Source: an uncultured Bacteroidota bacterium (GTDB taxonomy: Bacteria > Bacteroidota > Bacteroidia > Bacteroidales > GCA-2748055). Taken from it: DNA of 64,000 nt. Numbering within the stretch: the first letter of the stretch is position 1; each line of letters starts with the position of its first letter. The stretch covers positions 5,360 through 69,359 of the forward strand of contig CAKZNC010000113.1 of the NCBI GenBank assembly GCA_937129385.1, given 5' to 3'. Made by a program: the position numbers and the translations under genes. Below are positions 10,934-46,412 of the stretch, piece by piece. The notes beneath the pieces are model-generated. The model saw only the letters and a program-made list of their open reading frames with translations, had not been told where the DNA came from and did no database searches.

Positions 10934-10985
10934 CTACATCTTTTGATATGTCAAATATCATGTTTTGATTATGTCATTGAACATA

Positions 10986-11027
10986 GAGTTAAGAGTTAAG
11001 AGTTAAGAGTTAAGAGTGGAGAGCCGA
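10986..11027. repeat. Heptanucleotide tandem array (GAGTTAA)x4 plus 2 degenerate units
   Basis: Read directly: gagttaa x4, then gagtgga and gagccga. Further degenerate copies (ttaagagttgg, gagccgg) extend to about 11070. Confidence 0.95.
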
Positions 11028-11313: not shown

Positions 11314-12435
11314 TTACCCCCGAGGTTTCACCGCTGCGGTATACAAATTGCCTGGCATCACCCTCACCCAGTCTTTCAATTCCATCTGAAGCAGGATTCC
11401 TGAAAGCTGCGGTACAGGGATGCCGGTACGGACCCCCAGGATCTCCTTTCCAAGCCCCGGCGCTTTCTCAAGTTCGTCAAGGATAGCTGTCTCCTGGACA
11501 GTCAGTGGGGCCGTGAGGACCTGCACCGTCTCCCGGCCATCTCCTTCAGCCTCCCACCTAAGCATCTTTTCAATATCCGTGGCGCAGGTGACCAGTGCGG
11601 CGATGTTGTCACGAACCAACGCATTGCATCCGGCCGACCATTGATCGGTGGTTCTCCCGGGAATGGCAAATACATCCCGGTGATAGGACGAAGCGAGTTC
11701 CGCGGTGATCAATGCGCCTCCCTTGTGGGCCGACTCCACCACCAGGGTGGCATCCGCGAGTCCGGCAATGATCCTGTTCCTTCGGAGAAAATTATTCCTC
11801 TCCGGCTTCACCGCGCTGTGAAAATCAGTAAGCAAGGCCCCCTGTCGCATGATACGCGATGCCGCCTCGGCGTGTGCTGCGGGGTAAATGGTGCGCAATC
11901 CGTGCGCCAGGACGGAAAAGGTCTGTAGTCCGGCCTCCAGCGCCGACCTGTGGGCCGTGATGTCAATCCCGTATGCCAGTCCGCTGATCACCACCAGCCC
12001 GGGATGATTCCGGGCCAGCTCCTGCACGATCTGTGCTGTGGTCTCCCTTCCATACCTCGTGGCATTGCGCGTTCCGACGATGCTCAGGTATTTTGACCGG
12101 TTGAAATCCGGACTCCCCCGGTAGAACAGCAGCAGCGGTCCGTCGTCACAGTCCCTCAGCCGCTGCGGATAGGATTTGTCCATATACCAGGCAGCAGAGA
12201 TCCGGCTCTTCTCCATCGCCTCCACCTCCCTGGAAGCCTCGCTGATAAAATCTTTGGATCTCACCTGTCCCGACAGGAATTCCCCGACACCCGGGATGTT
12301 GCGCAGATGCGCCGGTTTCTCCCTGAACACCTCTTCCGGGGACCCGAGGTATTCGATCAGTCTCTTAGCCGTGATCGCCCCGATCCTCGGGATCATGGTC
12401 AGGGCAACCTGGTAAACGCGCGATTCTGAATTCAT
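11314..12435 (-). CDS. dprA: DNA-processing protein DprA (Smf)
   Basis: 373 aa with a Rossmann-like DprA core (VISGLAYGIDITAHRSAL...GGALITAELA). Confidence 0.9.
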   Translation of the reverse strand: MNSESRVYQVALTMIPRIGAITAKRLIEYLGSPEEVFREKPAHLRNIPGVGEFLSGQVRSKDFISEASREVEAMEKSRISAAWYMDKSYPQRLRDCDDGPLLLFYRGSPDFNRSKYLSIVGTRNATRYGRETTAQIVQELARNHPGLVVISGLAYGIDITAHRSALEAGLQTFSVLAHGLRTIYPAAHAEAASRIMRQGALLTDFHSAVKPERNNFLRRNRIIAGLADATLVVESAHKGGALITAELASSYHRDVFAIPGRTTDQWSAGCNALVRDNIAALVTCATDIEKMLRWEAEGDGRETVQVLTAPLTVQETAILDELEKAPGLGKEILGVRTGIPVPQLSGILLQMELKDWVRVMPGNLYTAAVKPRG

Positions 12436-12496
12436 TTAATTGGCATGACAATTTTCTGAACTGAAAACCGGATGCCGGGCTGGATCAATGGTACGG

Positions 12497-12551
12497 AACA
12501 TTCCGGGCACAGCCCTGGATCACTGACACGTAACACTCCGGGCACAGCCCT
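12497..12551. repeat. Imperfect 20-nt direct repeat (AACAYTCCGGGCACAGCCCT x2)
   Basis: Copies at 12497-12516 and 12532-12551 are 19/20 identical and 35 nt apart start to start. They lie in the intergenic gap upstream of dprA. Confidence 0.85.
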
Positions 12552-12627: not shown

Positions 12628-13110
12628 CTATTTTTCCCTGCTGTACCTGGTCAATGCAGCCTTGAGCTTCTTCCTGTCGGCCGGGTCTACGGCAGACAGA
12701 TTAATAGGTTTGTAGCGGGCCACCTTCTTGCGGTAGTTCTGGAAGAGCACCAGTCGCTCCTCGCGACCCAGGAAGTATTTTTCAATCTCAAATCTGACGA
12801 ACTGCTGCTTCGGGATCTGTACCGAACTCTTGCTGCTGTTGAACAAACCCACCGGGTAATAGCGGAACACCAGCACCTCGTTGACATCGTCGAAGTAGAA
12901 ATAATAGGGATTGCGGAACATGCCGATCAGGCTGATGACAATGAAGACCACGGCGATGGCGATGATGACATGGTATTTGCTGATGGGTGACTCCGGGCTG
13001 TCAAATACGTTGAGGAACATCACAGCCACGATGGAGGCGGTGAAAATGATGGTAAATACCATCTTCCGGAGCCAGATCCGGTAAATATTTCTCTTGTTGT
13101 CGATGATCAT
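12628..13110 (-). CDS. Hypothetical membrane protein
   Basis: 160 aa. Two N-terminal TM segments and a soluble C-terminal half. No motif recognised. Confidence 0.55.
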   Translation of the reverse strand: MIIDNKRNIYRIWLRKMVFTIIFTASIVAVMFLNVFDSPESPISKYHVIIAIAVVFIVISLIGMFRNPYYFYFDDVNEVLVFRYYPVGLFNSSKSSVQIPKQQFVRFEIEKYFLGREERLVLFQNYRKKVARYKPINLSAVDPADRKKLKAALTRYSREK

Positions 13111-18725: not shown

Positions 18726-20483
18726 ATGTACAGAACACATACCTGCGGAGAATTGAATATCCAGAATGTTGATGAAAATGTTAAACTCAGCGGATGGGTC
18801 CAGAAATCGCGCGACCTGGGGGGGATGACCTTCATAGATCTGCGTGACCGTTACGGGCTCACCCAGCTGGTCTTCAACATGGAGAAGAACGAGGAGCTTT
18901 GCAGGGAAGCAAGGAAACTGGGACGAGAGTTCGTGATTCAGGCCGAAGGAACGGTTGCTGAGAGAAGCAATAAAAACCCCAAAATGCCCACGGGGGAGAT
19001 CGAGATCCTGGTCACTTCACTGAAAGTGCTGAACGCTTCGGAGCATCCACCTTTTACCATAGAGAAGGATACAGACGGCGGCGATGAACTCAGGATGAAA
19101 TACCGCTACCTGGACCTGCGACGGGTCGATGTGCGGAAAAACCTGGAGTTGCGGCACAGGATGTCCATCGAGATCAGGAACTACCTGAGCGATGAGAAAT
19201 TCATCGAGGTGGAAACACCGGTCCTTATCAAATCCACCCCCGAAGGGGCACGTGACTTCGTCGTACCTTCGCGCATGAATCCAGGTCAGTTTTACGCACT
19301 TCCTCAGTCGCCGCAGACATTTAAGCAGCTGCTGATGGTGGCGGGGTTCGACCGTTATTTCCAGATCGTGAAGTGCTTCAGGGACGAGGACCTGCGGGCC
19401 GACCGCCAGCCGGAGTTCACGCAGATCGATTGTGAAATGTCATTCGTGGGTCGTGACGATGTGCTCGATGCATTTGAGGGTCTGTCCAACCACCTGTTCA
19501 AAGCCATCAAGGATGTGGAGATCACGGAGAAATACCCGAAAATGCCGTACAGCGAAGCACTGGACAGGTTTGGGAATGACAAACCCGATACACGTTTCGG
19601 CATGGAGATCAACGATATCAAAGAGCTCACCGCCGGCAAGGGATTCAACGTGTTCGACAGCGCGGAATATGTACGTGGTATTTGCGTTGAAGGCTGTGCC
19701 GAATATTCGAGAAAACAGCTGGATGAGCTGACCGATTTCGTCAGGAAACCCCAGATCGGTGCAAAAGGACTCGTCTACGTAAAATACAATGAAGCGGGAT
19801 CTTTCAAGTCGTCGGTTGACAAATTCTATACTCCGGATGACCTGCAGAAGTGGGCTGATGCCATGGGAGCAAAGCCGGGTGACCTGATGCTTGTGCTCGC
19901 CGGTGAGACCGCACTTACAAGAAAAGCACTGAGCGAACTCAGGCTGGAGATGGGAAGAAGGCTGGAACTGATGGATCCCGATGTTTTCAAGCCCCTCTGG
20001 GTGGTTGATTTTCCACTCCTGGAATGGGACGAAGAGACCAGCCGTTTCCATGCCATGCACCATCCGTTCACGCGTCCCTACGAGGAGGACCTTGAACTTT
20101 TCAAGTCCGATCCGGGCAAGGTACGGGCCATGGCCTACGACCTGGTGATCAATGGTGTTGAGATCGGCGGAGGATCGATCCGGATCCATAACGAGGAGCT
20201 GCAGCAGCAAATGTTTGACAACCTCGGGTTTACACGTGAGGAGGCATCCAGGCAATTTGGATTCCTCATGGGTGCCTTCCGTTACGGTGCACCTCCCCAC
20301 GGTGGGATCGCCTTTGGCTTTGATCGCTGGGTGGCGCTGTTTGCAGGCCTTGACTCCATCAGAGATACCATAGCGTTCCCGAAGAACAACGCCGGAAGGG
20401 ATGTCATGATAGACACACCGAGTACCATCTCCGCAGAGCAACTTGAGGAGCTGTTCCTGGCTGTGAAGTCTCCCACAAAATAG
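18726..20483 (+). CDS. aspS: Aspartate--tRNA ligase
   Basis: 585 aa. Class II aaRS motifs ([35 protein letters not shown]) and an OB-fold N-terminus. Confidence 0.96.
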
Positions 20484-20588
20484 GGAATGTGTAAAACTTG
20501 CCTGGGTTGTGAATAATTTCAGCGATTCATTGCCGGTTCACGGTTCGCGAATATCTATTTTCGTACCGTACAACTTTATCATTGCCAT

Positions 20589-20939
20589 ATGTTAAAAGTA
20601 GCAAAGGAAGCCGATCATTACCTGGTCTCCCTGTTCCAGGTAAAAAAACTCAATACGCTGTTCTCAGAGCTGATCAGTCAGCAACTGGAAGACCTGGTCA
20701 GCGTAAAAGACCGCCACGTAATCTTCAACCTCGCGCATGTGAATTTCATTGATACGGCAGGGTTCTTTGCGCTGGAGCGAGCGGCCGGCATTGCGAAGGC
20801 CAATCATTGTGTTTTCCAGCTGTGCAATATCACCGACGAGGTGCAGGAACTGATCGGGCTCACCGGTCATGAAGCTACATTTGACATCATTCCCCGGCTG
20901 AATGTGAGGGAGAAGATCGTGATGGAACTTGATGAGTAA
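20589..20939 (+). CDS. STAS-domain protein (anti-sigma-factor antagonist family)
   Basis: 116 aa. Fold-typical pattern (VIFNLAHVNFIDTAGFFAL). No partner kinase or anti-sigma factor nearby. Confidence 0.7.
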   Translation: MLKVAKEADHYLVSLFQVKKLNTLFSELISQQLEDLVSVKDRHVIFNLAHVNFIDTAGFFALERAAGIAKANHCVFQLCNITDEVQELIGLTGHEATFDIIPRLNVREKIVMELDE

Positions 20940-20965
20940 GGTTAGTCGAGTATCGAGAGAGGATT

Positions 20966-21007
20966 CAGTCGGCAGCGTTCAGCCGTCAGCCGTCAACACA
21001 CAACGCA
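20966..21007. repeat. Degenerate heptanucleotide array (CAGYCGK-like, 6 units)
   Basis: cagtcgg cagcgtt cagccgt cagccgt caacaca caacgca. The unit is the reverse complement (rotated) of the GACTGCC array inside miaB. Confidence 0.8.
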
Positions 21008-21016
21008 CTACATGCA

Positions 21017-22525
21017 TCAATCTTCAGCGATATCGCCGATCAGTGTGGCCGATGTACATTTCCTGATCTTTACTTTCACATAATCACCGGCTTTACGACC
21101 TGCAGCCGGGAATACGACGACTTTATTCTGACTGGTACGTCCCACCAGTTCGCTTTCAGATTTTTTGGACGGACCTTCGGCCAGTACCTCGAAAACACCT
21201 CCCAGGTCATCCTGCTTGCTTGCCAGTGACAATTCACCTTGCAGAGCGATGATCTCATTCAGCCTTCGGGTTTTCACCTCTTCAGGAACATCATCTTTAT
21301 ATTTCTTTGCCGCGAAGGTGTCGGGCCGTTCACTGTATTTAAACATGTATGCAAAGTCAAAACCCACCCATCTCATAAGGTCCAGGGTCTCGCGGTGCTC
21401 CTCCTCGGTCTCTCCGCAGAATCCGGAGATGATATCCGTTGAGATGGTGGCTTCCGGCAGGTATTTCCTGATGGCCCGGATGCGGGACGCGTACATATCA
21501 CGGGTATAGCCGCGTTTCATTCTCCGGAGCACTTCGGTACTGCCCGACTGGACTGGCAGGTGGATACTCCTGCACAGGTTCGGGTACTTCGCCATGGTCT
21601 GCAGGAGCTGGTCCGACATGTCCTTGGGGTGCGAGGTGGCAAACCTGACCCTGAGCAGTGGTGAGATCCTGGCAATCCGTTCCAGCAGATCCTCGAACCT
21701 GATGATAGGCGACCCTTCGGCAGGCTCAGGGTCCTTCACCGAGTTTTCTTCCGGCTCTTGACTGCCGACTGCCGACTGCCGACTGCCCCCTGCCGACTGC
21801 GAACTGCCGACTGCCGACTGGTTCCTCTCTCGACTCCTGACTCCTGGCTCTTGACGATCCTCTTCGCTCTCCTCTCTCCCCTCTCCTTTCCATTCATACG
21901 AATTCACATTCTGCCCAAGCAACGTCACCTCCCGGTATCCTTTATCCAACAGCTCCCTGACCTCCTTTTCGATGGTCTCCGGGTCCCGGCTCCGTTCCCT
22001 TCCGCGGGTATAGGGCACCACGCAGTAAGCGCAGAAATTGTTACAACCCCGCATGATCGCTACAAATGAGGAAACGTGGTTCTTGTCGAGCCGGACCGGC
22101 TGTACATCTCCATAGGTCTCTTCGAGGGATAGCAGGGTGTTGATCCCTTTCTGACCGCCCTCCACTTCAGAAAGCAGGGCAGGGAGTTCCCTGTAGGCAT
22201 CCGGACCCACCACAAGGTCGACCGACCGTTCATCTTCAAGCAGCTTGTCCTTGAGTCGTTCGGCCATGCAGCCGATCACACCCACCACGAGATTTTCGTT
22301 GACCTTTTTCCGCCGACCGAATTCCGAGATCCGGTTCCGGACCTTCTGTTCGGCATTGTCCCGGATGGAACAGGTGTTCACCAGTACCAGGTCGGCCTCC
22401 TCCATATTTTCCGTAACATCATAATCCTGTTTTTGCAGGATGGCCACCACCACCTCCGAGTCCACCACGTTCATCTGGCAGCCATAGGTCTCAATATATA
22501 ACTTCTTCCTCTTCATAATCTTCAT
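21017..22525 (-). CDS. miaB: tRNA-i6A37 methylthiotransferase (radical SAM) with an in-frame repeat insertion
   Basis: Motifs YIETYGCQMN, GCNNFCAYCVVPYTRG, RFATSHPKD and a TRAM C-terminus. The track GTG start at 22600 adds a non-conserved extension; ATGs at 22525 and 22516 fit the family. Carries an extra acidic/Ser-rich loop of about 40-50 aa. Confidence 0.92.
   Translation of the reverse strand: MKIMKRKKLYIETYGCQMNVVDSEVVVAILQKQDYDVTENMEEADLVLVNTCSIRDNAEQKVRNRISEFGRRKKVNENLVVGVIGCMAERLKDKLLEDERSVDLVVGPDAYRELPALLSEVEGGQKGINTLLSLEETYGDVQPVRLDKNHVSSFVAIMRGCNNFCAYCVVPYTRGRERSRDPETIEKEVRELLDKGYREVTLLGQNVNSYEWKGEGREESEEDRQEPGVRSRERNQSAVGSSQSAGGSRQSAVGSQEPEENSVKDPEPAEGSPIIRFEDLLERIARISPLLRVRFATSHPKDMSDQLLQTMAKYPNLCRSIHLPVQSGSTEVLRRMKRGYTRDMYASRIRAIRKYLPEATISTDIISGFCGETEEEHRETLDLMRWVGFDFAYMFKYSERPDTFAAKKYKDDVPEEVKTRRLNEIIALQGELSLASKQDDLGGVFEVLAEGPSKKSESELVGRTSQNKVVVFPAAGRKAGDYVKVKIRKCTSATLIGDIAED
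21760..21822. repeat. Heptanucleotide array (GACTGCC)x9 inside the miaB coding sequence
   Basis: gactgcc x4, then ccctgcc, gactgcg, aactgcc, gactgcc, gactggt. Followed out of phase by gactcct gactcct ggctctt (21832-21852). Bounded by the 10-bp direct repeat GGCTCTTGAC (21753-21762 and 21846-21855). Confidence 0.95.
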
Positions 22526-22973
22526 CCCTTGCAGACAGGGTTGGTGTGGAGCCCGGACATAACATTCAGCAGAAAGCTTCAAGCATTGGGCAGGCGCCAC
22601 TGTTCAGCATACATCCCTGTTAGCGGACCCAAAATTAATTAAAATTGTTCCAACCCATTGATTTTAACATTGATTTATCAAGTTGAAAAATATATATATT
22701 TAAATAGTGATTAAAATATATATATTATGATTCGTATCGGTCAGGATGGCCTTTGCCATGCCCATAGGTAGATTTGAACCGGATTCATTGCTTGCCGATC
22801 GACAGTGAATTCAGAGGATTGTGGTGATTCGGGTTGAAACTGCTCACGAATCTCCAGGGACGCCCACCGATTTAATTGGTCATTTCGCCGATTTGCCCTT
22901 TCGGGGTCATGGAATGCATCGTAATATTGCAGTGTGAAACAAAAAATCCACGTATAATATTAATTAAAACAAT

Positions 22974-23507
22974 ATGAAAATGGGAGCTGGTCTTTTCTGG
23001 GGTGCAATGTTGATGGTCATCGGTATTGCGCTCATCATCAAGGTGGTTTTTAACATTGATTTCCCGATCTTCAAGGTGCTGGTCGGCGTATTCTTCATCT
23101 TCCTGGGGCTGAAGGTATTATTTGGTCGTGTCCTGATACCTGAAGGGAAGATCGGGCCTGACGAAACGATCTTCAGTGAAAGGGTGTATGAGCAGACCGA
23201 GAATGGCAAGGAGTACAATGTGATCTTCGGGAAAGGGGTGTATGATTTTACCAATGTTGACCTGAGCAAGGGTGATCATCATGTGAAGATCAACACGGTC
23301 TTCGGGGGATCAACGATCCGGATCAGCGAGGATATACCAACCCGTATCGAGGCAGATGCAGTATTTGCAGGGGCAGAATTGCCGGGTGGAAATACAGCTG
23401 TTTTCGGAACAACAAGTTATACAACAGGTAGTTACCGTTCAGACTCGGCTGCACTGTACATCAAGACCGGCGTAGTGTTTGGCGGGATCCAGGTGGTAAA
23501 CCGGTAA
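22974..23507 (+). CDS. LiaF/DUF2154-like membrane protein
   Basis: 177 aa. Two N-terminal TM segments and a beta-rich C-terminal domain (VFGGSTIRISEDIPTRIEADAVFAGAELPGG) resembling the LiaF C-terminal domain. Confidence 0.5.
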   Translation: MKMGAGLFWGAMLMVIGIALIIKVVFNIDFPIFKVLVGVFFIFLGLKVLFGRVLIPEGKIGPDETIFSERVYEQTENGKEYNVIFGKGVYDFTNVDLSKGDHHVKINTVFGGSTIRISEDIPTRIEADAVFAGAELPGGNTAVFGTTSYTTGSYRSDSAALYIKTGVVFGGIQVVNR

Positions 23508-23534
23508 GGATTTCCTAAAACCGGCCTGTTTTTC

Positions 23535-23542
23535 TATTTTTG
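23535..23542 (+). promoter_or_regulatory. Candidate -7 promoter box (TATTTTTG) for yebC
   Basis: Matches TAnnTTTG, 21 nt upstream of the ATG at 23563. Confidence 0.35.
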
Positions 23543-23562
23543 TAGAAACTAAAAACCAGGAT

Positions 23563-24306
23563 ATGTCAGGACACAGCAAATGGTCGACCATAAAAAGGAA
23601 GAAAGGTGCAATTGATGCCAAGAGAGGCAAGATCTTTACGAAGCTCATAAAAGAGATCACCATTGCGGCTGAAGAGGGAGGTAGTGATCCGGAAACGAAT
23701 CCCAGGCTGAGGACAGCTGTGCAGACCGCCAAAGGCATGAACATGCCAAAGGACAACATCCAACGGGCCATCAACAAAGCCAACAAGGATTCATCCAGCT
23801 TCCAGGAGACCACCTTCGAGGGGTACCTGCCGAATGGGATTGCTGTATTCATTGAATGTCTGACCGACAATAACAACCGCACTGTAAGTAACATCAGGTC
23901 GATTTTTACGAAGCGGGGCGGGTCACTTGGTACCAACGGGTCGCTGTCGTTTCTTTTTGACAGGAAGGGGATCATCACCGTGCCGAAAGGGGAACTGGAT
24001 CCTGAGGAGTTTGAGCTGGAGATCATTGATGCCGGGGTGGAAGAGATCGAGCTGAATGATGATACATTTATGATCACCACACCGCTGGAGGATTTTCACA
24101 ATGTGCAGAAAAAGCTGGAAGAGATGGAGCTTGAAACCGAAAGTGCAGCCCTGCAGCGAATTCCCAATGATACGAAAGAGTTGCCGGTGGAGGATGCGGT
24201 ACAGATCCTGAAAATCGTAGAGGAATTTGAAGACGATGATGATGTTCAGAATGTCTTCCATAACCTGGAAGAGACGGAAGAGGTGGCAGAGGCTATGGAT
24301 TCTTAG
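23563..24306 (+). CDS. YebC/PmpR-family DNA-binding transcriptional regulator
   Basis: 247 aa with the hallmark N-terminus MSGHSKWSTIKRKKGAIDAKRGKIFTKL. Confidence 0.95.
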   Translation: MSGHSKWSTIKRKKGAIDAKRGKIFTKLIKEITIAAEEGGSDPETNPRLRTAVQTAKGMNMPKDNIQRAINKANKDSSSFQETTFEGYLPNGIAVFIECLTDNNNRTVSNIRSIFTKRGGSLGTNGSLSFLFDRKGIITVPKGELDPEEFELEIIDAGVEEIELNDDTFMITTPLEDFHNVQKKLEEMELETESAALQRIPNDTKELPVEDAVQILKIVEEFEDDDDVQNVFHNLEETEEVAEAMDS

Positions 24307-25399
24307 GCAGATCGATCCAGAAAGTCGTTCCTTCCTCTTTGTCAGAAATAAAATCAACGGTGCCTCCCAGGTAATCTTCACCCAGTATCTTCATGCTGTA
24401 AGTGCCCAGTCCACGGCCAGTCCCCTTGGTTGAGAAAGAGCGTTCAAAAATAAGATGCTTTGTCCCTTCAGAAATGACAGTCCTGTTGTTCACCCAGAAT
24501 CGAACCCGCTTTTCATCCTGTGAGGTGCCAACAACAACTTTATCTTCCTCTTCAGAAGCCTCAAGTGCATTTTTTATCATGTTGACAAGAATTCTTTGTA
24601 GGAGTGACTGGTCGGAGACAAATATGCGCGTATCTATTTTTTTATCCAGTGTCAGTTGTCCGTTCAGATTTTCATTGTTCTTAAATGAAAGCATGGTTTC
24701 AATAAGCAGATCTTCCGGATGAATTTCATCCATATTGACTTTTAATTCACCTCTCTCCGCCATGGATAACTGTTTCTGCTCATTGATGGTATCGTAGATG
24801 GAATTGTAATTTGTTTCGAGCAGATCCAGGTATTGCTGATCCACATCGCCCTTCATCTTGATCAGATTGATAATGCTGTTCATGTTCCCGACGGTATTCA
24901 TCAGGTCATGGTAAAATATTTTCTCCAGTTCGGCTTTTCTTTTCGCAATTGAGATATCTTCCAGCGTAATCACATAGAAAAAGCCATCGCTGCATTCGAA
25001 AGGAGTTGCTGTAAATCTGAAATTAAATGGCATATTTCTTCCCTCCTTCATTCCGAGGATCCTGTAATGACTCGTGACGGTTTTGTTTTCATTTTTGCAG
25101 ATATCCATTGCTCTGAAAGCTCCACAGAATTCGCAAGCCTTTGAAGCGCCACAGCCCCCTTGCTCCTTTTTCGAATTGACACATTGAAAAATATCACCGG
25201 GTCTCAGATTCAGCAGAGAGTTTGATTCGCCATAAGCGAAGCGTCCGTTGATACTTTGATTGGCATAAACCAGCCTCCTGTCGCTATTCAGAATAAGAAC
25301 AATATTCGTAAGCGACTCGATCACCTTTATGATAAACTCCCGGGATGAGCGATCAGGCATGATCTTCTCAAGAATCTTATACTTTCCTTTTTTCTCCAT
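24293..25399 (-). CDS. Orphan PAS-domain sensor histidine kinase with a Cys-rich sensor motif
   Basis: 368 aa from the ATG (the track TTG is at 25402) with no TM segment. PAS-like N-terminus containing C73-x9-C83-x5-C89-x2-C92-x8-C101, an H-box region FYHDLMNTVGN, and HATPase motifs (NMIKNALEAS, GTGRGLGTYSMK). Confidence 0.8.
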   Translation of the reverse strand: MEKKGKYKILEKIMPDRSSREFIIKVIESLTNIVLILNSDRRLVYANQSINGRFAYGESNSLLNLRPGDIFQCVNSKKEQGGCGASKACEFCGAFRAMDICKNENKTVTSHYRILGMKEGRNMPFNFRFTATPFECSDGFFYVITLEDISIAKRKAELEKIFYHDLMNTVGNMNSIINLIKMKGDVDQQYLDLLETNYNSIYDTINEQKQLSMAERGELKVNMDEIHPEDLLIETMLSFKNNENLNGQLTLDKKIDTRIFVSDQSLLQRILVNMIKNALEASEEEDKVVVGTSQDEKRVRFWVNNRTVISEGTKHLIFERSFSTKGTGRGLGTYSMKILGEDYLGGTVDFISDKEEGTTFWIDLPKNP

Positions 25400-25452
25400 C
25401 AATCACCTGCACAAGATATTCGGGGTGAATATATATAAAAATTTTATCTATT

Positions 25453-26136
25453 CTATTTTTCAACAAGTTTCATCCCCCTGTTTACAAGTCTGGTACCAAT
25501 AATCAAAAGCCCCATCCAGGTTGCGGCAAGGGAAGATGTCATCAAAAGGTGGTCCGGACTCATCCATGTGAAGGTGATCAGCACCGGTGCAGCAAGGAAG
25601 GCGAGCATACTTCCAAAAACCGGGAATTTCACTTCGTTGAACCTGGAGATCGTGAATACGGTGGTAAAGGCGCCGAATGCTGTCAAGCCGATTTTTTGCC
25701 AGAGAAGGACGTTTCTGATGGCGATAAGGATGCCGGTTGTGGTTGCGTCGCCAATCTTCATCTTCTCATTCAGACCCTCTGTTGTTGCCCGGGCAACGTA
25801 AAATTCATTTAGGCTCATTTGAAAGAAGGCGTATGCCATCGCCAGGATGAAGAAGCTGCTCAAAATGTGCATGCCTTTCTGAAACCGGTGGAACATCAAC
25901 AGGTACAGTGGAATAAAGAATGTAGCGACTGAACCGGCTATCAGCCAGGTGATTGCACTGATGCGCTGTCGCAAAATATTATCCAGGATAAAATCGATGT
26001 CCTCCTCAAATGTGGCATTGGGAACTGAATAATCGAATTTCAGCAGATAGGCCGTCAGCATTGAAAGAACAGTCAGGATCAGAAAAAAACCCGACAGGAT
26101 CTCAATAGTCCTGATATTTCTTCGTTTTACCGGCAT
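25453..26136 (-). CDS. Hypothetical polytopic membrane protein
   Basis: The internal ATG at 26136 (MPVKRRNIRTIEIL...) gives 227 aa with about 6 TM segments. The longer track ORF to 26460 would overlap the SPOR gene and has no coding-like N-terminus. Confidence 0.55.
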   Translation of the reverse strand: MPVKRRNIRTIEILSGFFLILTVLSMLTAYLLKFDYSVPNATFEEDIDFILDNILRQRISAITWLIAGSVATFFIPLYLLMFHRFQKGMHILSSFFILAMAYAFFQMSLNEFYVARATTEGLNEKMKIGDATTTGILIAIRNVLLWQKIGLTAFGAFTTVFTISRFNEVKFPVFGSMLAFLAAPVLITFTWMSPDHLLMTSSLAATWMGLLIIGTRLVNRGMKLVEK

Positions 26137-26214
26137 GGAGCGAAAGTAATTAATATTTTCACTGGTTGTCAGATTGCAAACAATTTTAACTATTTTTGGA
26201 GCACGATTGGAACG

Positions 26215-26670
26215 ATGAGATTCATAACTTTTTGCATATTGATTTTTGCCGCAGCGACCGTGGCTACAGCGCAGTCTGGCAGTGGCTCTGTCAGGTCGAA
26301 AGACGCACTTAAAAGTCTGCAGGAAAAGGAGATGACCGGCAACGTCGTTCTGCAGCTTGATACTTTGATCTTTGAGAATTACCAGAAGCTCCTTGTTCAG
26401 AACAGTAAACTGCGCGGCGTGGATGGTTACAGGATCAGGATCTTTTCCGATAACGGACATGGCGCAAAGGAGAATCAGCGAAGGGTCAGGGCCAGGTTCC
26501 TGTCATCCCACCCCGGCATCCCAACCTACGGTCCATATGAAGGTTCCTATTACAAGATCTATGTCGGAGATTTCAGAACCAAGCGAGATGCTTTGAAATA
26601 CCTGGATGATATACAGAGGGGTTTTCCGGATGCATTTATCGTAGAAAGTAATATTGTAATTGAAGATTGA
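26215..26670 (+). CDS. SPOR-domain protein (septal peptidoglycan binding)
   Basis: 151 aa. Signal peptide and a C-terminal SPOR-like module (GYRIRIFSDNGHGAKENQRRVRARF...YYKIYVGDFRTKRDALKYL). Confidence 0.7.
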   Translation: MRFITFCILIFAAATVATAQSGSGSVRSKDALKSLQEKEMTGNVVLQLDTLIFENYQKLLVQNSKLRGVDGYRIRIFSDNGHGAKENQRRVRARFLSSHPGIPTYGPYEGSYYKIYVGDFRTKRDALKYLDDIQRGFPDAFIVESNIVIED

Positions 26671-26692
26671 ATAACTTCATTGGTGAATTTTT

Positions 26693-28594
26693 ATGAGTGA
26701 TGAAATCAGGCACAAGTGCGGGATTGCACTGATCAGGTTATTGAAGCCCCTCGAGTATTACCAGTTGAAATACGGTTCATGGAAGTATGGTCTGCAGAAG
26801 CTGTATCTGCTCATGGAGAAACAGCGCAACCGTGGGCAGGATGGTGCAGGCCTGGTAAGTGTGAAATTTGATGTGCCGCCGGGCCATAAGTATTTCAGCA
26901 GGCTCAGATCCTCGAAAAGCGATGCCATCAATGACATTTTTAAATCGGTCTACGGCAATTTCAGGAAAGCGGAACGAAAGCATCCAAAATCCATTGACGA
27001 TGCCAGCTGGGCTAAAATGAACCTTCCCTTCGTGGGTGAACTCTACCTGGGTCATCTCAGGTATGGAACATTTGGAAGTAATTCTTCAGATAACCTGCAC
27101 CCGGTCATGCGTCAGAACAACTGGAGGACCAGGAACCTGGTGATCGCGGGAAACTTTAACCTGACCAACGTGGATGAGTTGTTCAACACCCTCGTTGAAT
27201 TGGGTCAGTCACCTAAAGATTATACCGATACGGTCACGGTGCTGGAGAAGGTGGGTCATTTCCTGGACCGGGAAAACCAGGTGCTTTTCGATGATTTCAA
27301 GGAGAAAGGATATTCAAATACGGACATCAGTGACATGATCACTGAGAAGATAGATATTGGGAAGATCCTTGGAGAGTCTTCCAAAAGATGGGATGGTGGG
27401 TATGCCATCGCTGGGCTGCTCGGACACGGCGACGCCTTTGTCATGCGGGATCCCTGGGGGATCAGGCCTGCGTATTATTACCACGATGAAGAAATTGCAA
27501 TTGTTGCATCTGAGCGGCCTGTTATCCAGACGGTGATGGACCTTAAGGCCGATCAGATCCATGAATTGGATCCGGGGAAGGCCATCGTGATCAAAAAGAA
27601 CGGGACCATCCAGCAACCACAGATACGGGAGCCCTATGAAAAGCGGTCATGTTCATTTGAGAGGATCTACTTTTCCAGGGGGAGCGACAAAAGCATTTAC
27701 AGTGAAAGGAAAAAACTGGGACGACTGCTTGTGCCGCCAATACTCGAGCATGTCGACCATGATCTGCAGAATACAGTCTTTTCATTCATTCCCAACACCG
27801 CCGAGTCGGCCTTCTACGGAATGGTAGCAGGGGTGGAGGACCATATGATCAATGATAAGATACGGCTGATCAAGGAGAGCAATGGTTCCCTGGATGATGA
27901 TGAGATGGCCGAAATTATTTCAAGGCGACCACGGATCGAAAAGGTGGCCATCAAGGACATCAAGCTCAGAACTTTTATCAGTCAGGACAAAGGACGAAAA
28001 GACCTTGTAAACCATGTGTATGACATCACTTATGGTACAATTAAGCGCGGTGTGGACAACCTGGTGATCATTGACGATTCCATTGTCAGGGGGACCACCC
28101 TGCGGGAAAGTATCATTAAGATACTTGATCGTCTCGGACCGAAAAGGATCGTGGTGGTATCCTCTTCCCCCCAGATCAGGTATCCCGATTGCTATGGGAT
28201 CGATATGGCCAGGCTCGGAGATTTCATTGCTTTCCAGGCTGCCATTGCACTGCTCAGGGAAACCGGTAAGGAGCATGTAATCAACGAGGTGTACAAGAAA
28301 TCTGTTGCACAGAGACACGAACCAAAGGAGAAGATCGTGAACTATGTGAAGGATATTTACAAGCCTTTCACTGCACAACAGGTTTCAGATAAGATTGCGG
28401 AATTGCTGACCTCGCCGGAGATCAACGCAGAGGTCAGGATCGTCTACCAGACCATTGAAAATCTGCATGAAGCCATTCCCGATGATCTGGGCGACTGGTA
28501 TTTCACCGGGGATTACCCGACCCCGGGAGGGAATAAGGTGGTCAATACTGCATTTATCAATTACATCGAAGGCATCACTTCTCGTGCTTATTGA
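26693..28594 (+). CDS. purF: Amidophosphoribosyltransferase (long Bacteroidota-type class II glutamine amidotransferase)
   Basis: 633 aa. N-terminal nucleophile context KCGIALIRL, and a PRTase motif LVIIDDSIVRGTT. Confidence 0.85.
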   Translation: MSDEIRHKCGIALIRLLKPLEYYQLKYGSWKYGLQKLYLLMEKQRNRGQDGAGLVSVKFDVPPGHKYFSRLRSSKSDAINDIFKSVYGNFRKAERKHPKSIDDASWAKMNLPFVGELYLGHLRYGTFGSNSSDNLHPVMRQNNWRTRNLVIAGNFNLTNVDELFNTLVELGQSPKDYTDTVTVLEKVGHFLDRENQVLFDDFKEKGYSNTDISDMITEKIDIGKILGESSKRWDGGYAIAGLLGHGDAFVMRDPWGIRPAYYYHDEEIAIVASERPVIQTVMDLKADQIHELDPGKAIVIKKNGTIQQPQIREPYEKRSCSFERIYFSRGSDKSIYSERKKLGRLLVPPILEHVDHDLQNTVFSFIPNTAESAFYGMVAGVEDHMINDKIRLIKESNGSLDDDEMAEIISRRPRIEKVAIKDIKLRTFISQDKGRKDLVNHVYDITYGTIKRGVDNLVIIDDSIVRGTTLRESIIKILDRLGPKRIVVVSSSPQIRYPDCYGIDMARLGDFIAFQAAIALLRETGKEHVINEVYKKSVAQRHEPKEKIVNYVKDIYKPFTAQQVSDKIAELLTSPEINAEVRIVYQTIENLHEAIPDDLGDWYFTGDYPTPGGNKVVNTAFINYIEGITSRAY

Positions 28595-29597
28595 ACCGGA
28601 ACCGCTTGAACAGGTCATTCAGGTAGGTATCCCGCATGCTCATATTCTTGATCATGCGCAGGTGCTTGGGCACGTAATTGGACAGGTGTCGTTCCACCTT
28701 GCTTTTATAAAGGTCATTGACGGTGATCATGATCCCCGTCTCCTCGACCTCCCCGAAACTGTGGTTGAGTACAGTGCCGAATGATCTCATCGAAGGGGAG
28801 AGGCTCATGTATGCATTGATCAGCGGAGGGATCGATTCCCCCGTTGCCCGCACCTTCTTGGAGAGAATCTTGTAATCTTCCATGTAATCGGACCCGGTGA
28901 AGATCGCATCGAGTTTTGCCTGTTCCATCAATACGCGCAAGGGTTCCCTGGGAACAACCAGCCTGTCATTGTCGGGAAAATGCTTGTTCAGGAAAAACAG
29001 GATCATGTCGCGTGCTTCCTGGTGATAATGAAGATACATGGTCACTTTTCCGAAGAAATACTTGATCTCAGGGTGGTCCATCACCAGTGTTCCCAGGCCA
29101 TCCCATAGATTGTCAAGTGCATAGAGTCCTTTCCTTCGGAGGTTGGTCGACTGGTACATTGGCTGTACGAAAGAACGACCGAGCTCGATCATGTGCGGCA
29201 GGTAATCGTTTATAAATTCTTGAGAAAAATTGAAAAGCTTTGCTGTTGCAAGCTTTACCTCTCCATCCTTGCTGCATGAATCTGAATTACAGATCAGGAA
29301 GCGGTATCCACCCAGGATCTCCTGCTGGTCCGGGTCCCAGACGATCAATTGTCTGTAGCCGTCTTCACCAAAATCAAAATCGTCAAGATCACAATCTTTT
29401 CCCGTGCCTCCGCCGGCAGCCCTGAAGGCCACCTCCCTGAGCCTGCCGATCTCCCTGACCAGGTTCGGAGAATCATTTGCATCGACAATATAGAGCAGGT
29501 TTCCGCCCTTATTGGTTTTTCTGACAAATTTATCTTCTGTCAGTTCAGCAAGCAGGAGCTTCTTGTCCAGTGCCGGAATGATTCGTTTCATGTTCAT
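28575..29597 (-). CDS. GNAT-fold N-acyltransferase of the OlsB/GlsB (hemolysin-like) type
   Basis: 340 aa. Sits directly downstream of a lysophospholipid-acyltransferase-like gene. ILGGYRFLI and GRSFVQPMYQ segments resemble the OlsB/GlsB Acetyltransf_5 family as I recall it. Confidence 0.6.
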   Translation of the reverse strand: MNMKRIIPALDKKLLLAELTEDKFVRKTNKGGNLLYIVDANDSPNLVREIGRLREVAFRAAGGGTGKDCDLDDFDFGEDGYRQLIVWDPDQQEILGGYRFLICNSDSCSKDGEVKLATAKLFNFSQEFINDYLPHMIELGRSFVQPMYQSTNLRRKGLYALDNLWDGLGTLVMDHPEIKYFFGKVTMYLHYHQEARDMILFFLNKHFPDNDRLVVPREPLRVLMEQAKLDAIFTGSDYMEDYKILSKKVRATGESIPPLINAYMSLSPSMRSFGTVLNHSFGEVEETGIMITVNDLYKSKVERHLSNYVPKHLRMIKNMSMRDTYLNDLFKRFRFNKHEK

Positions 29598-29617
29598 GGT
29601 CTGCTCTGTTTATGTTT

Positions 29618-30481
29618 TCAGATGGCGCTAAATACAGCCGAAGGATCTTCATGAAGTTTGTAACAATGTTCCTTCACCTTCTGCGCCCATTCTGCGGGCC
29701 TGTGACGCCGGTCAAATACCTGGTGATCAATTGGCTTGCCAATGGTAATGGTATAGTGACTGTTCTTATGGCGAAATGTTTCCCGCGGCAGAAAGAACAT
29801 CTCCAGGTTGGTTTTGATCCCCAGAAACCTCCTCATATTGGCAAAGTTATAAAAGAAATTGGAACAACGGCCTGTAACATGGATCGGTACTACATCCCGA
29901 CGGTGCCTGACCGCCTTTGAGACAAAGCTTTTCTTCCACTCGGGATCCCTGATTTCTCCCTTCCTCCGACGGGATACCAGTCCGGCAGGAAAGGTCATTA
30001 CATGCTGGTCTGACCGGAAGATCTCATCAATGAGTTTTACATTTTCCGCTGCCTGTGCACCATGCTTGTTGATCGGTACAAATACACCATCCATATTGGT
30101 GGCATTCATCAAAATGTCGTTCACCAGTACCCTGTATTTCCTGTTGTACCGCTCACCGATCTCTTTCATCAGCATGACCCCGTCGAAACCACCCAGTGGG
30201 TGATTGGATACGAAGATGAACGGTCCGCCTTCCGGGAGGTTCTCCTCACCAACCAGGTCAACTTTGACGTTGAACATCTCGATGGCCGCACTGGAAAAGT
30301 CGAAGTCTCTCTTATGGCCGTGCAGGCGCAGCACTTCGTTGACCTCATCAATCGCCAGAGCTCTGTGCAGATACCGGAAGACGAACCCCGGGATCAGTCG
30401 GGCTACACGTGGGTTTTTCTTTCTGAACATCTCCCTGATGTCAAGGGGCTTGAAGTCTTTATTGATCTCCTGGTCACTCAT
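29618..30481 (-). CDS. Lysophospholipid/1-acyl-glycerol-3-phosphate-type O-acyltransferase (OlsA/GlsA-like)
   Basis: 287 aa from the ATG at 30481 (the track TTG is at 30493). PlsC-type motifs SNHPLGGFDG (HX4D) and MTFPAGLVSR. Confidence 0.7.
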   Translation of the reverse strand: MSDQEINKDFKPLDIREMFRKKNPRVARLIPGFVFRYLHRALAIDEVNEVLRLHGHKRDFDFSSAAIEMFNVKVDLVGEENLPEGGPFIFVSNHPLGGFDGVMLMKEIGERYNRKYRVLVNDILMNATNMDGVFVPINKHGAQAAENVKLIDEIFRSDQHVMTFPAGLVSRRRKGEIRDPEWKKSFVSKAVRHRRDVVPIHVTGRCSNFFYNFANMRRFLGIKTNLEMFFLPRETFRHKNSHYTITIGKPIDHQVFDRRHRPAEWAQKVKEHCYKLHEDPSAVFSAI

Positions 30482-30599
30482 TTTATAAGGCAATGGTCCG
30501 GGGATGCAAAAATACCAAAAAATCCCATACCGTGAAGACTACTTTGCAGCCCTTGCCACTGCTGCAATGCAATTTGCTATTACAAAAGTTATTAACAAA

Positions 30600-30634
30600 G
30601 TGGGAAAAAGTGGGGTAAAATGGTATGAAGTGGG
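30600..30634 (+). promoter_or_regulatory. Phased GTGGG boxes: putative MraZ operator
   Basis: GTGGG at 30600, 30610 and 30630, plus a degenerate ATGGT at 30620. Spacing is exactly 10 bp. A near-consensus -7 box TATATTTT (30643-30650) follows, with the mraZ ATG at 30674. Confidence 0.6.
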
Positions 30635-30673
30635 AAAAAATATATATTTTTACCTCTTAATGGACCTGGAGAC

Positions 30674-31138
30674 ATGACAACATTCATCGGAGATTATACC
30701 GTAAAGATCGATTCCAAGGGGAGGCTCTCATTTCCCGCGGCATTCATGCGCCAGATGAAGGAGGCTTCATCCGACGGATTCGTATTGAAGCGTGATGTCT
30801 TTGAAAAGTGCCTGATCCTTTACCCGATGGAAGAGTGGGACAGGCAGAATACCATGATCAGGGAAAAGACCAATCCTTATAACAAGGAGCATGCGAAATT
30901 CCTGCGGATGTTTTTCGCCGGCACGGCGGAGGTGACACTTGACGGGAACAACAGGATGCTGGTACCCAAACGACTGCTGGAGCATGCAGGGATAAAAAGC
31001 GAAGTTGTCCTTGCGGGACAATCGGGGAAGATTGAGATCTGGGATGCCGGCGCGTACACTGGTGTGAGTCTGGCTGATGATGATTTTGCCTCCATGGCTG
31101 AAAAAATACTGGGTGGAACATCCATAGAATCAGAATAA
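30674..31138 (+). CDS. mraZ: Division/cell-wall cluster transcriptional regulator MraZ
   Basis: 154 aa. Two SpoVT/AbrB-like repeats (DSKGRLSFPAAF and DGNNRMLVPKRL). Confidence 0.95.
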   Translation: MTTFIGDYTVKIDSKGRLSFPAAFMRQMKEASSDGFVLKRDVFEKCLILYPMEEWDRQNTMIREKTNPYNKEHAKFLRMFFAGTAEVTLDGNNRMLVPKRLLEHAGIKSEVVLAGQSGKIEIWDAGAYTGVSLADDDFASMAEKILGGTSIESE

Positions 31139-31139
31139 T

Positions 31140-32039
31140 ATGGCTTATCACAGGCCAGTCTTGCTGAATGAGAGTATTGAAGGATTGAATATAAAACCAA
31201 GAGGGACCTACGTGGATCTTACTTTTGGTGGAGGGGGACACTCCCGCCTGGTTCTTGACAAGTTGGAAAAAAAGGGAAGGTTGTTTGCATTTGACCAGGA
31301 CCCGGACGCCGTGCAGAATGCCGGCAGTGACAGGCGACTGGTTTTCATCCAGGCAAATTTCAGGTACATGCGGAATTTCCTCCGCTACCATGAAGTGTCC
31401 GGGGTCGACGGGATCCTGGCTGACCTCGGGATATCTTCTCATCAGATCGATCAGCCCGACAGGGGTTTTTCCTTTCGTTCTGAGGCAGCCCTGGACATGC
31501 GCATGGATACCTCCTCCCCTAAATCGGCCGTTCACGTTCTGAACGAATACCCTGAAAAAGAACTTGCAAGGATATTTCGTGAATACGGTGAAATTAAAAA
31601 TGCCGGAAGGGTGGCGAGGACGATCGTAGGTGGAAGATCGGAAGGCAGTATCGGCACCACGGGGGACCTGGAAGATGTGCTGGGTCATCTTATCCCGCAA
31701 CAAACAAGGTCCAAGTTCCTCGCCCGCATCTACCAGGCCATCAGGATCGAGGTCAACGAGGAGATGGATGTCCTGAAGGAGATGTTGATGCAAACAGCAG
31801 ATTGGCTGAATCCCGGGGGAAGACTGGTAGTGATCACCTACCATTCTCTTGAAGACCGTCTCGTAAAAAATTTTATGCGGTCGGGAAACACAGAGGGCAA
31901 GGTGGAGAAAGATTTTTACGGTGCGCCACAGACCGAATGGAGACAGGTAAACCGCAAAGTGATCGTTCCGGAACCAGGTGAGCTGAAGGAGAATAACAGG
32001 GCCAGGAGCGCAAAATTGAGAATAGCTGAAAAAATATAG
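31140..32039 (+). CDS. rsmH: 16S rRNA (cytosine1402-N4)-methyltransferase
   Basis: 299 aa with HRPVLLNE, DLTFGGGGHS and DLGISSHQID motifs. Confidence 0.96.
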   Translation: MAYHRPVLLNESIEGLNIKPRGTYVDLTFGGGGHSRLVLDKLEKKGRLFAFDQDPDAVQNAGSDRRLVFIQANFRYMRNFLRYHEVSGVDGILADLGISSHQIDQPDRGFSFRSEAALDMRMDTSSPKSAVHVLNEYPEKELARIFREYGEIKNAGRVARTIVGGRSEGSIGTTGDLEDVLGHLIPQQTRSKFLARIYQAIRIEVNEEMDVLKEMLMQTADWLNPGGRLVVITYHSLEDRLVKNFMRSGNTEGKVEKDFYGAPQTEWRQVNRKVIVPEPGELKENNRARSAKLRIAEKI

Positions 32040-32417
32040 ATGAGCAGGGAGCGAAAAAATATTGAATTTGAAGAGGTTAAAAAGGAGAAGGGAACACAAT
32101 TCTCCTTCAGGAGCCTGATCGATGGCAATGTACTCACCCAGCAATCGGTGATCCGGCAAGCCCCATATCTTGCATTACTGGTGATCATGGCACTCCTCAT
32201 GATCGCAAACAGGAACCACGCTGAAAAACTGGTCATCCGGTCAGATGAATTGCAGACCGAGGTGAAGGAGTTGAGATCAAGGGCGATCACCACCTCTTCC
32301 AATCTGACAATGGTGAGCCGGCAGAGCAGGGTGGAACAGATGGTACGAGAAAAGGAGCTTGGTCTGACAGAGAACAAGGAGCCACTTAAAAAATTGGTAA
32401 TGAAGGAGAAGAACTGA
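32040..32417 (+). CDS. ftsL: FtsL-like cell-division protein
   Basis: 125 aa, a single TM segment plus a coiled coil, in the canonical position between rsmH and ftsI. Confidence 0.7.
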   Translation: MSRERKNIEFEEVKKEKGTQFSFRSLIDGNVLTQQSVIRQAPYLALLVIMALLMIANRNHAEKLVIRSDELQTEVKELRSRAITTSSNLTMVSRQSRVEQMVREKELGLTENKEPLKKLVMKEKN

Positions 32418-45847: not shown

Positions 45848-46297
45848 ATGTCACTTTTTGAGACCATCAACGAAGAACTGAAGACAGCTATGCGCGCCAG
45901 GGAGAAGGAGCGGCTCGAAGCCCTGAGAGCGATCAAGACCGCCTTTCTCATGGCCAGGTCTGAAAAAGGCGCCTCCCATGAATTGTCTGAGCAGGATGAA
46001 CTGAAGATCCTGAAAAAGCTGGTCAAACAGCGACAAGACTCTGCGGAGATCTATCAGCAGCAGGGGAGAGAAGATCTTTATAACAAGGAGATTGCTGAAA
46101 GTAAGGTGATCGCGGAATTCCTTCCTGAACAGATGAGCGAAGCGGAGATCCGTACCTACTTACAGCAGCTGATCAGTGAGATGGGAGCCGACTCCATGCA
46201 GCAAATGGGGCCGGTCATGGGGCGGGCGACGAAAGAGCTCTCAGGCAAAGCCGATGGCAAAATGATCAGCTCGATCGTCAGGGAACTACTCTCCTGA
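45848..46297 (+). CDS. GatB/YqeY-domain protein
   Basis: 149 aa. The pattern LKTAMRAREKERLEALRAIK...AEIYQQQGREDLYNKE is typical of YqeY. Confidence 0.88.
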   Translation: MSLFETINEELKTAMRAREKERLEALRAIKTAFLMARSEKGASHELSEQDELKILKKLVKQRQDSAEIYQQQGREDLYNKEIAESKVIAEFLPEQMSEAEIRTYLQQLISEMGADSMQQMGPVMGRATKELSGKADGKMISSIVRELLS

Positions 46298-46381
46298 CCT
46301 TGCCCCTTGCCCTTTGCCCCTTGCCCATTGTCCCTTGCCCCTTGCCCATTGCCCCTTGCCCATTGCCCCTTGCCCCTTGCC
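46298..46381. repeat. Heptanucleotide tandem array (CCTTGCC)x12
   Basis: Starts on the nucleotide after the YqeY stop codon. It has 12 phased units with variants cctttgc/ccattgc/ccattgt. Confidence 0.95.
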
Positions 46382-46386
46382 CACAT

Positions 46387-46412
46387 GAAAAAGGGCGGAA
46401 TTTATTCCGCCC
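46387..46412 (-). terminator. Intrinsic terminator of the ppiD-like gene
   Basis: Perfect 8-bp stem GGGCGGAA-TTTA-TTCCGCCC (46393-46412). On the minus strand it is followed by UUUUUC. It has no U-tract on the plus strand. Confidence 0.75.

Follow-up and report, generated by a model that had tools for sequence, protein, structure and literature searches.

Within a 64,000-nucleotide stretch of the genome of an uncultured Bacteroidales bacterium (contig CAKZNC010000113.1; hereafter the window, meaning the whole stretch analyzed), a tandem array of 7-nucleotide (nt) units lies inside miaB, the predicted gene of a tRNA i6A37 C2-methylthiotransferase, and is translated in frame through the middle of the enzyme. 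In our judgement, with a probability of roughly three in four, this array is a coding variable-number tandem repeat (VNTR) housed in a permissive, disordered loop of MiaB, where slippage reshapes it and the reading frame acts as a filter on what survives. That a non-triplet repeat is maintained in a conserved radical-SAM enzyme, and that one and the same loop serves as a repeat hotspot across a whole clade, makes the case mildly notable.

A heptanucleotide array inside miaB

The components of the region are as follows.

21017-22525, minus strand: miaB coding sequence, 502 amino acids (aa), starting with MKIMKRKK, identical to database protein P0001
21707-21889, minus strand: extra loop of MiaB, codons ~213-273 (~60 aa), between the strand VTLLG/QNVNSY and the helix FEDLLERIA
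21753-21762, no strand assigned: direct repeat GGCTCTTGAC, copy 1, with an imperfect extension at 21748-21762
21760-21822, minus strand: main heptanucleotide array, nine units, on the plus strand GACTGCC x4, CCCTGCC, GACTGCG, AACTGCC, GACTGCC, GACTGGT
21760-21787, minus strand: longest perfect run, four identical units, 28 nt
21823-21831, minus strand: 9-nt bridge, TCCTCTCTC on the plus strand, separating the two heptamer tracts by a phase shift of 2 nt
21832-21887, minus strand: second heptamer tract, eight units in a single phase, encoding GEGREESEEDRQEPGVR
21846-21855, no strand assigned: direct repeat GGCTCTTGAC, copy 2, 93 nt from copy 1, with an imperfect extension at 21841-21855

The assignment of the gene to MiaB draws on its equivalog score and on its domain content. 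The product matches TIGR01574 with 470.1 bits (cut-off 355.3), the match being divided in two by the insert, and the three domains UPF0004 (PF00919), Radical_SAM (PF04055), and TRAM (PF01938) are all matched. Furthermore, it is 51% identical to the solved B. uniformis MiaB, and in an alignment of its 52 closest homologues, which come from uncultured Bacteroidales and of which the closest are 436-539 aa long, the cluster cysteine C16 is nearly invariant and C52, C86, C161, C165, and C168 are invariant. The longest open reading frame (ORF) over miaB reaches upstream to a GTG at 22600.

On the coding strand, the unit of the main array is GGCAGTC. Since three 7-nt units amount to 21 nt, successive units of the array fall into each of the three reading frames, giving rise to a 7-aa period, G-S-R-Q-S-A-V, which appears in the protein as ...DRQEPGVRSRERNQSAVGSSQSAGGSRQSAVGSQEPEENS.... 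A first-pass annotation of this DNA, made from the letters without database searches, had already recognized the nine phased units at 21760-21822, the out-of-phase mini-array GACTCCT GACTCCT GGCTCTT (21832-21852), the in-frame read-through within miaB on the minus strand, and the 7-aa periodicity arising from three units. All of these hold up upon direct reading of each unit (the offset between the tracts being 2 nt), upon translation, and upon the TIGR01574 match. The whole heptamer-derived tract, from 21753 to 21887 (45 codons), exceeds the extent given at that time, the second tract running on the plus strand as GACTCCT GACTCCT GGCTCTT GACGATC CTCTTCG CTCTCCT CTCTCCC CTCTCCT, i.e., on the coding strand, first (GGAGAGN)4 and then AGGAGTC-type units, with rows of the Tandem Repeats Finder (TRF) program at 21832-21855 and 21867-21887. 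On the coding strand the (GGAGAGN)4 part adjoins the ancestral W-K-(E)-G-E codons, and the tract of the window begins at W-K-G-E.

For the main array, TRF reported a score of 94, with 8.7 copies and 85% matches. When (GACTGCC)3 was searched for with at most 3 mismatches, six overlapping matches were obtained in the 64-kb window, every one of them at the miaB site, and none in 100 dinucleotide-preserving shuffles. With head-to-tail units extending beyond chance length, the miaB array is a VNTR or long simple sequence repeat (SSR). The four-unit perfect run at 21760-21787 is the portion of the tract most prone to slip.

The exact 10-bp direct repeat GGCTCTTGAC, described in the first-pass annotation as two copies 93 nt apart bounding the cassette, is indeed present at 21753 and 21846; these are its sole occurrences in the window (shuffle mean 0.13; 0 of 100 shuffles reach 2). 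Its role as a boundary fares less well. The 10-mer, the core of an imperfect 15-nt duplication (13/15), combines an AAGAGCC-type unit with the last letters, GTC, of the unit before it. The closest relative, L001, has a GGCAGTC array at the equivalent place but no copy of the 10-mer. Because it is built of array units, lacks terminal inverted repeats, and is missing in L001, we prefer to see the repeat as having arisen when units were duplicated within the array, and not as an insertion footprint or target-site duplication. That its spacing is a multiple of 3 follows from the fact that any duplication retained in a functional gene requires it. A simulated deletion between the two copies keeps the frame and leaves a protein 31 aa shorter, exactly as had been predicted for recombination between them.

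Two further candidates at this site were tried and rejected. A plus-strand ORF at 21758-22069 (103 aa) is a stop-free reverse reading of the repeat, and nothing seen in the present analysis points to a gene there. A structured RNA was ruled out as well, given that no Rfam match was found in the region 20500-23000 at E up to 1 and that the mRNA fold of the repeat region was unremarkable compared with shuffles (z = -1.77).

A hypervariable loop of MiaB

The chain of the B. uniformis MiaB (7MJV and related entries) aligns with the window protein as two blocks, query 6-213 with chain 17-223 and query 274-498 with chain 229-453. Accordingly placed between these breaks (query 213/274, chain 223/229), ~60 residues of the window MiaB stand where the B. 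uniformis enzyme has ~5 unaligned ones. In an AlphaFold2 model built on the 52-sequence alignment (mean predicted local distance difference test score, pLDDT, 69.8), whose best structural matches are the MiaB entries 7mjz and 7mjx (E about 1e-56), the insert falls between strand 199-203 and helix 277-285 and has a pLDDT of 26-40 over residues 216-268. The motifs on its two sides, QNVNSY and FEDLL, are invariant in the alignment. The insert is thus modelled as disordered and outside the conserved core. Its position between the radical-SAM core (LLGQNVNSY) and FEDLL, as first proposed from the letters, agrees with both the alignment and the model.

Throughout the 52-protein alignment, length variation is confined wholly to the segment between the invariant motifs GQNVNSY and (R)FE.LL, which measures 8-12 aa in 11 proteins and 18-95 aa in the other 41. 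Many forms of periodicity are met with here: SRQSAVG in P0027, P0028, and P0002, SGEWRVE in P0003, GPGDQGTR together with AAGNG in P0025, a 10-aa unit in P0031, and GERRKAK in P0123. Between lineages, neither the sequence nor the length, the charge, or the repeat unit of the inserts is conserved. The basal loop sequence is W-K-E-G-E.

At the DNA level, nine related loci were examined, and these are orthologous, because the gene order around miaB is conserved (LiaF-like and YebC genes on one side, STAS and AspRS genes on the other). The arrays of all nine lie at the identical site in miaB and all are in frame. Coding-strand GGCAGTC-type 7-nt arrays, oriented as in the window, are present in L001, L002, L003 (~5, 14, and 15 units, respectively), and L205, and this unit and its orientation are kept in alleles that are only 77-80% identical outside the loop. 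L004 carries ~25 7-nt units of the GGAGAGT type, a unit type that is also present in the second tract of the window; 8-nt arrays of GGGGACC(N) were found in L005 and L207, the former additionally having a 15-nt array, and L206 has the GGAGAGT-type unit in hexameric form, as a 6-nt unit, GGAGAG.

Outside the loop, P0018 (loop of 12 aa) and P0014 (76 aa) share 98.1% identity, and P0044 (9 aa) and P0031 (87 aa) share 90.5%. Masking the loop before neighbour-joining gave a tree with short-loop proteins dispersed through the long-loop clade and with outgroup loops of 9 aa. Basal-length loops thus recur in proteins 90-98% identical to long-loop ones, and on this comparison the insert is dispensable. 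The suggestion, made at the outset, of a repeat tolerated in a permissive surface loop is therefore well supported by the hypervariability (8-95 aa among 52 homologues), the collapse to basal length, the predicted disorder, and the ~5-residue loop of B. uniformis.

Some observations on annotation and neighbourhood may be added. The long-loop proteins P0004 and P0005 are named only "radical SAM protein" in the NCBI annotations of metagenome-assembled genomes, and the short-loop ones are named MiaB; presumably, the insert pushes long-loop proteins below the equivalog criteria, hence the vague annotation. A small CMD-family gene (PF02627, 101-118 aa) lies between miaB and the STAS gene in most relatives (L001-L005 and L207 compared) and is missing from the window, L205, and L206. 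The spacer at 20940-21016 of the window holds a weak (TCAGCCG)2.4 repeat at 20979-20995, and in L002, 7-nt arrays stand directly 3' of the miaB stop codon, in the spacer matching it.

A length difference between near-identical assemblies

One database cluster (cluster 1) contains, beside the window protein, a second member, P0121 (516 aa), derived from the ENA analysis ERZ27249345. All 502 of 502 positions of the window MiaB are identical in P0121, which has in addition 14 residues, SSQSAGGSRQSAVG, within the array. Over 13,200 bp, its contig, L205, agrees with window positions 19368-32525 except for one mismatch and one gap of 42 nt. The sole mismatch is at 22705, upstream of miaB; the sole gap corresponds to six units, in frame, within the array. 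In other words, the copy number of the array differs between closely related genomes, subject to the possibility of an assembly collapse considered below, and the array seems to be dynamic on a very short time scale. With the array between them being longer, the two copies of the 10-mer are 135 nt apart in L205. We also scanned metagenomes for close relatives, where, among the matches listed, the MiaB genes were 50-57% identical and thus unfit for allele comparison.

Alternative readings of the array

Besides a tolerated repeat, the first-pass annotation had put forward a stochastic ON/OFF switch on ms2i6A37. As considered here, slippage in the heptamer array would toggle miaB between an in-frame ON and a truncated OFF state and so create subpopulations without ms2i6A37 and with altered UNN decoding. 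The frame arithmetic behind this idea is sound: the unit is not a multiple of 3 and lies within an ORF, and when one or two units (7 or 14 nt) were gained or lost in the perfect run in silico, a stop was reached within 15-20 codons, at aa 260-268, whereas gain or loss of three units (21 nt) kept the frame. A shifted product of about 260-268 aa would stop halfway through the radical-SAM barrel, have no TRAM domain, and probably be inactive. In addition, the array is the most mutable site in the region compared, differing by six units where the two assemblies otherwise show one single-nucleotide polymorphism (SNP) in 13.2 kb. OFF cells would also be viable, given that miaB is dispensable in E. 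coli and Salmonella. A coding heptanucleotide switch is, moreover, known from neuO (PMC13001214). Nevertheless, not one OFF allele was found among the 10 alleles seen at the DNA level (the window plus nine loci) or among the others, seen as full-length proteins, all of them being in frame in a sample in which intact genes are over-represented. To counter the bias of a full-length query, the N-terminal 212 aa were also used as a query; they returned many truncated MiaB fragments, yet among those of the close clade (at least 75% identity) none ended in a shifted array; they were cut or frameshifted outside the loop, at contig ends or by unrelated frameshifts. Furthermore, the longest perfect run has 4 units in an array with 85% matches, compared with 3-53 repeats and 65.6% OFF alleles in neuO (PMC13001214), and the gene concerned is a housekeeping one with the tract in its middle, not a surface or restriction-modification gene with a tract at its 5' end. 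The single change observed is a multiple of three units, and the 6-nt and 15-nt units of relatives cannot cause a frameshift; what the clade shares is therefore the permissiveness of the loop, not switching. As judged on titles and abstracts, the papers found to mention both miaB and phase variation drew no connection between the two. The switch is thus not supported, and we regard it as quite improbable. The same low credence applies to a wider version, in which the array would be a low-frequency contingency or "tuning" locus, non-multiple-of-3 slippage producing cells null for MiaB (i6A37) and in-frame changes modulating the enzyme. If it were true, however, selection for evolvability would account for the persistence of the array at one site across a Bacteroidales clade, and miaB would provide the first case of an SSR switch that controls a modification of the tRNA anticodon loop, tying simple-sequence hypermutation to translational decoding.

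Somewhat less improbable, but still unlikely, is a functional role for the peptide itself, as a disordered "tuning knob" that would modulate tRNA access, solubility, partner binding, or turnover, with its length tuning MiaB, or else as a target of diversifying selection. Inserts do persist in 41 of the 52 close homologues, the GGCAGTC unit and its orientation outlast considerable divergence outside the loop (77-80% identity), whichever of the three frames is read, the encoded residues are hydrophilic (G, S, R, Q, A, V, E), and the secondary structure of the AlphaFold2 model would place the loop on the catalytic, strand-to-helix side of the barrel; in neuO, according to work cited in PMC13001214, the number of repeats has been reported to raise catalytic activity. 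Yet nothing about the inserts, be it sequence, length, charge, or repeat unit, is conserved between lineages, nearly identical proteins (90-98%) do with basal-length loops, no structure is predicted at a pLDDT of 26-40, and a hydrophilic composition likewise survives passively in a surface loop. Two other explanations are hardly credible. According to one of them, the 93-nt block was inserted as a cassette by a mobile element and the two GGCTCTTGAC copies are its target-site duplication, for which the exact 10-bp repeat flanking the block, and found nowhere else in the window, might speak. However, the ends of the block bear no inverted repeats, and within the 64 kb neither the block nor (GACTGCC)3 recurs, so that a mobile-element insertion was rejected; the composition of the 10-mer from array units, its extension as an imperfect 15-mer, the array of L001 at the same place without it, and the 135-nt distance in L205 all argue in the same direction. 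According to the other, the array is an assembly artefact that does not exist in the real genome; tandem repeats are indeed easily mis-assembled, and a collapse might account for the 42 nt by which L205 differs, but independent assemblies (ENA, JGI, Logan, and NCBI) carry in-frame arrays at this exact position, and a 63-nt array is shorter than a typical read.

Several points weigh against a neutral VNTR shaped by slippage and frame. The 42-nt difference could itself be an assembly collapse in the window's assembly, because L205 contains a duplicated block, a 60-nt exact self-match at offset 42, of which an assembler with k <=61 could drop one copy; L205, a k141 contig, gives the more trustworthy length of the two, and the allele lengths as such come from assembled sequence, not from raw reads. 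A full-length query, too, biases the sample against out-of-frame alleles. Furthermore, the recurrence of inserts at one site of the enzyme and the retention of GGCAGTC at 77-80% identity could reflect some benefit, and the loop, which follows a beta-strand, would open on the catalytic face of the barrel, its placement relative to bound tRNA being deduced from the sequence alignment to 7MJV and the AlphaFold2 secondary structure. The 85% matching of the arrays and the in-frame state of all alleles are as expected of old, drifting repeats under frame selection, and the peptide is probably neutral.

Genomic background and proposed origin

The miaB array is not the only short tandem array in this DNA. 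Four arrays of the window reach about 5 or more copies. All of them have period 7, and the three that lie between genes are listed here.

10985-11023: (AGAGTTA)4.7, between dprA and the glutamate dehydrogenase gene
46298-46382: (CCTTGCC)12, between a yqeY-like gene and a SurA-like PPIase gene, starting right after the TGA stop (46295-46297) of the yqeY-like gene
46417-46451: (TAACTCT)5, just past the stop of the SurA-like PPIase gene

The same holds for eight related loci, together about 157 kb long, where each array with 6-8-nt units was either intergenic or in the miaB loop. Within the window, GACTGCC arrays are found in miaB only, whereas (GACTGCC)3 occurs at more than 119 loci in genome contigs of many phyla, without a common context. 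The genome-wide search proposed in the first-pass annotation, carried out here on the window and on genome contigs, thus showed both that the array is unique to miaB within the window and that the GACTGCC unit is not lineage-specific. Among the (GACTGCC)3 loci listed, there was no miaB locus; one weak match to the MiaB family (25% identity) came from a Rhizobium locus (L051), where the array lies beyond the part that matched. By a crude test, which inflates the count in GC-rich genomes, about a third of the listed loci fall in long open frames. A search with the translated repeat, (GSRQSAV)7, retrieved only domain-less ORFs of 52-84 aa, evidently spurious ORF calls over arrays.

On these grounds, we propose the following scenario. 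Genomes of this lineage would generate tandem arrays of 6-8-nt units, for the most part in intergenic DNA. A first array in MiaB may have been seeded in an ancestor of the clade by the W-K-E-G-E codons of the short loop, which are rich in purines, and variant units such as AGGAGTC and GGCAGTC may have expanded later in turn. Slippage, together with unequal recombination, would then expand, contract, duplicate, and delete units, and point mutations would degrade them. Being read in the three frames in turn, such an array would yield a periodic, hydrophilic, low-complexity peptide of 7-aa period. Purifying selection on MiaB would discard net length changes that are not multiples of 3, so that only in-frame lengths persist. 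The 10-bp direct repeat would be left over from an internal duplication and could mediate yet another in-frame deletion of 31 aa.

If so, the locus offers a natural example of how a disordered, permissive loop can absorb a non-codon-multiple repeat in an essential-type enzyme, with the reading frame as the filter. More practically, 0-90 extra residues are accommodated at this site of MiaB, a property that could be exploited to tag or engineer radical-SAM methylthiotransferases, and the array may serve as a strain-level length marker for these uncultured Bacteroidales.

Other repeats of the window are recorded here in their own right. AGAGTTA and TAACTCT are one unit, with arrays in opposite orientation at two distant intergenic sites (10985-11023 and 46417-46451), and this unit resembles the TAACTGA repeats of some Bacteroidetes (PMC4679880). 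In L004 and L207, no TRF array with a score of at least 50 was found between dprA and the glutamate dehydrogenase gene. A terminator-like hairpin, GGGCGGAATTTATTCCGCCC, lies at about 46393-46412, between (CCTTGCC)12 and (TAACTCT)5, so that in the interval 46295-46451 two different heptamer arrays flank one hairpin between convergent genes. At 12480-12551, a 35-nt unit is repeated 2.1 times (86% matches, TRF score 109) in the intergenic stretch between dprA (11314-12435) and an ORF at 12628-13110. Additionally, four GTGGG-type boxes (three GTGGG and one degenerate ATGGT) with 10-nt spacing, aaaGTGGGAAaaaGTGGGGTaaaATGGTATgaaGTGGGAA, occupy 30597-30639, ~35 nt upstream of mraZ (30674-31138; PF02381, 85 bits), and an equivalent TTTTTCCCAC x4.3 array adjoins mraZ in L005 and L207. 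We take these boxes to resemble the direct-repeat operator bound by MraZ at the head of the dcw cluster.

Comparison with known repeat systems

Among prokaryotic long simple sequence repeats (LSSRs) with units of 5-11 nt, heptanucleotides are, by the account given of Mrazek et al. 2007 in PMC4679880 and PMC4692102, the most abundant class in many genomes and are attributed to polymerase slippage; according to the former source, their predominance possibly stems from the length of polymerase-DNA contact, LSSRs lie mostly between genes, and coding regions rarely contain units other than codon multiples. The miaB array resembles LSSRs in its head-to-tail 7-nt units far above chance, in the occurrence of several units per genome, in its varying copy number, and in its presumed slippage origin. 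It differs from them in lying in frame inside a conserved housekeeping enzyme, with one loop affected across a whole clade.

Lineage-specific abundance of 7-nt repeats is also a trait of the intergenic heptamer families, such as TAACTGA in Beggiatoaceae, Cyanobacteria, and some Bacteroidetes (PMC4679880), or the short tandemly repeated repetitive sequences (STRRs) of cyanobacteria and the GGGNATC repeats of Xanthomonas and Nostoc (PMC4692102). The window shares this trait, having (AGAGTTA)n/(TAACTCT)n and (CCTTGCC)n between genes, and arrays of those families, too, now and then overlap ORFs, mainly at protein termini. In those families, one unit recurs at many intergenic sites, often beside start or stop codons; GGCAGTC, in contrast, is confined to miaB within the window and sits in the middle of the catalytic domain. 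Known heptanucleotide switches have far more units than the four of the perfect run in miaB; the hmw genes, for instance, have 13-38 upstream (PMC2651432).

The closest coding counterpart is neuO, the capsule O-acetyltransferase gene of E. coli K1, with its (AAGACTC)n coding VNTR of 3-53 repeats. Among 64 complete genomes, 65.6% have the gene out of frame, and within one culture ~7% neighbouring repeat numbers are seen (PMC13001214). Both genes have a 7-nt unit within an ORF, a 7-aa repeat, full length only at unit numbers that keep the frame (multiples of 3), and a polymorphic copy number. However, neuO is a phage-borne surface-modification gene whose repeat occupies the 5' end and whose switching can be measured in culture, whereas the miaB array, with four perfect units, is degenerate, mid-gene, and chromosomal in a housekeeping gene, with no OFF allele seen.

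Finally, low-complexity or disordered insertions made by slippage in permissive loops are a general phenomenon, best known from eukaryotes and Plasmodium. The MiaB insert has much in common with them: it is hypervariable and hydrophilic, modelled as disordered, situated between conserved structural elements, and quickly gained and lost. It differs in that its DNA unit is not a codon multiple, so that each change in length has to pass the filter of the reading frame.

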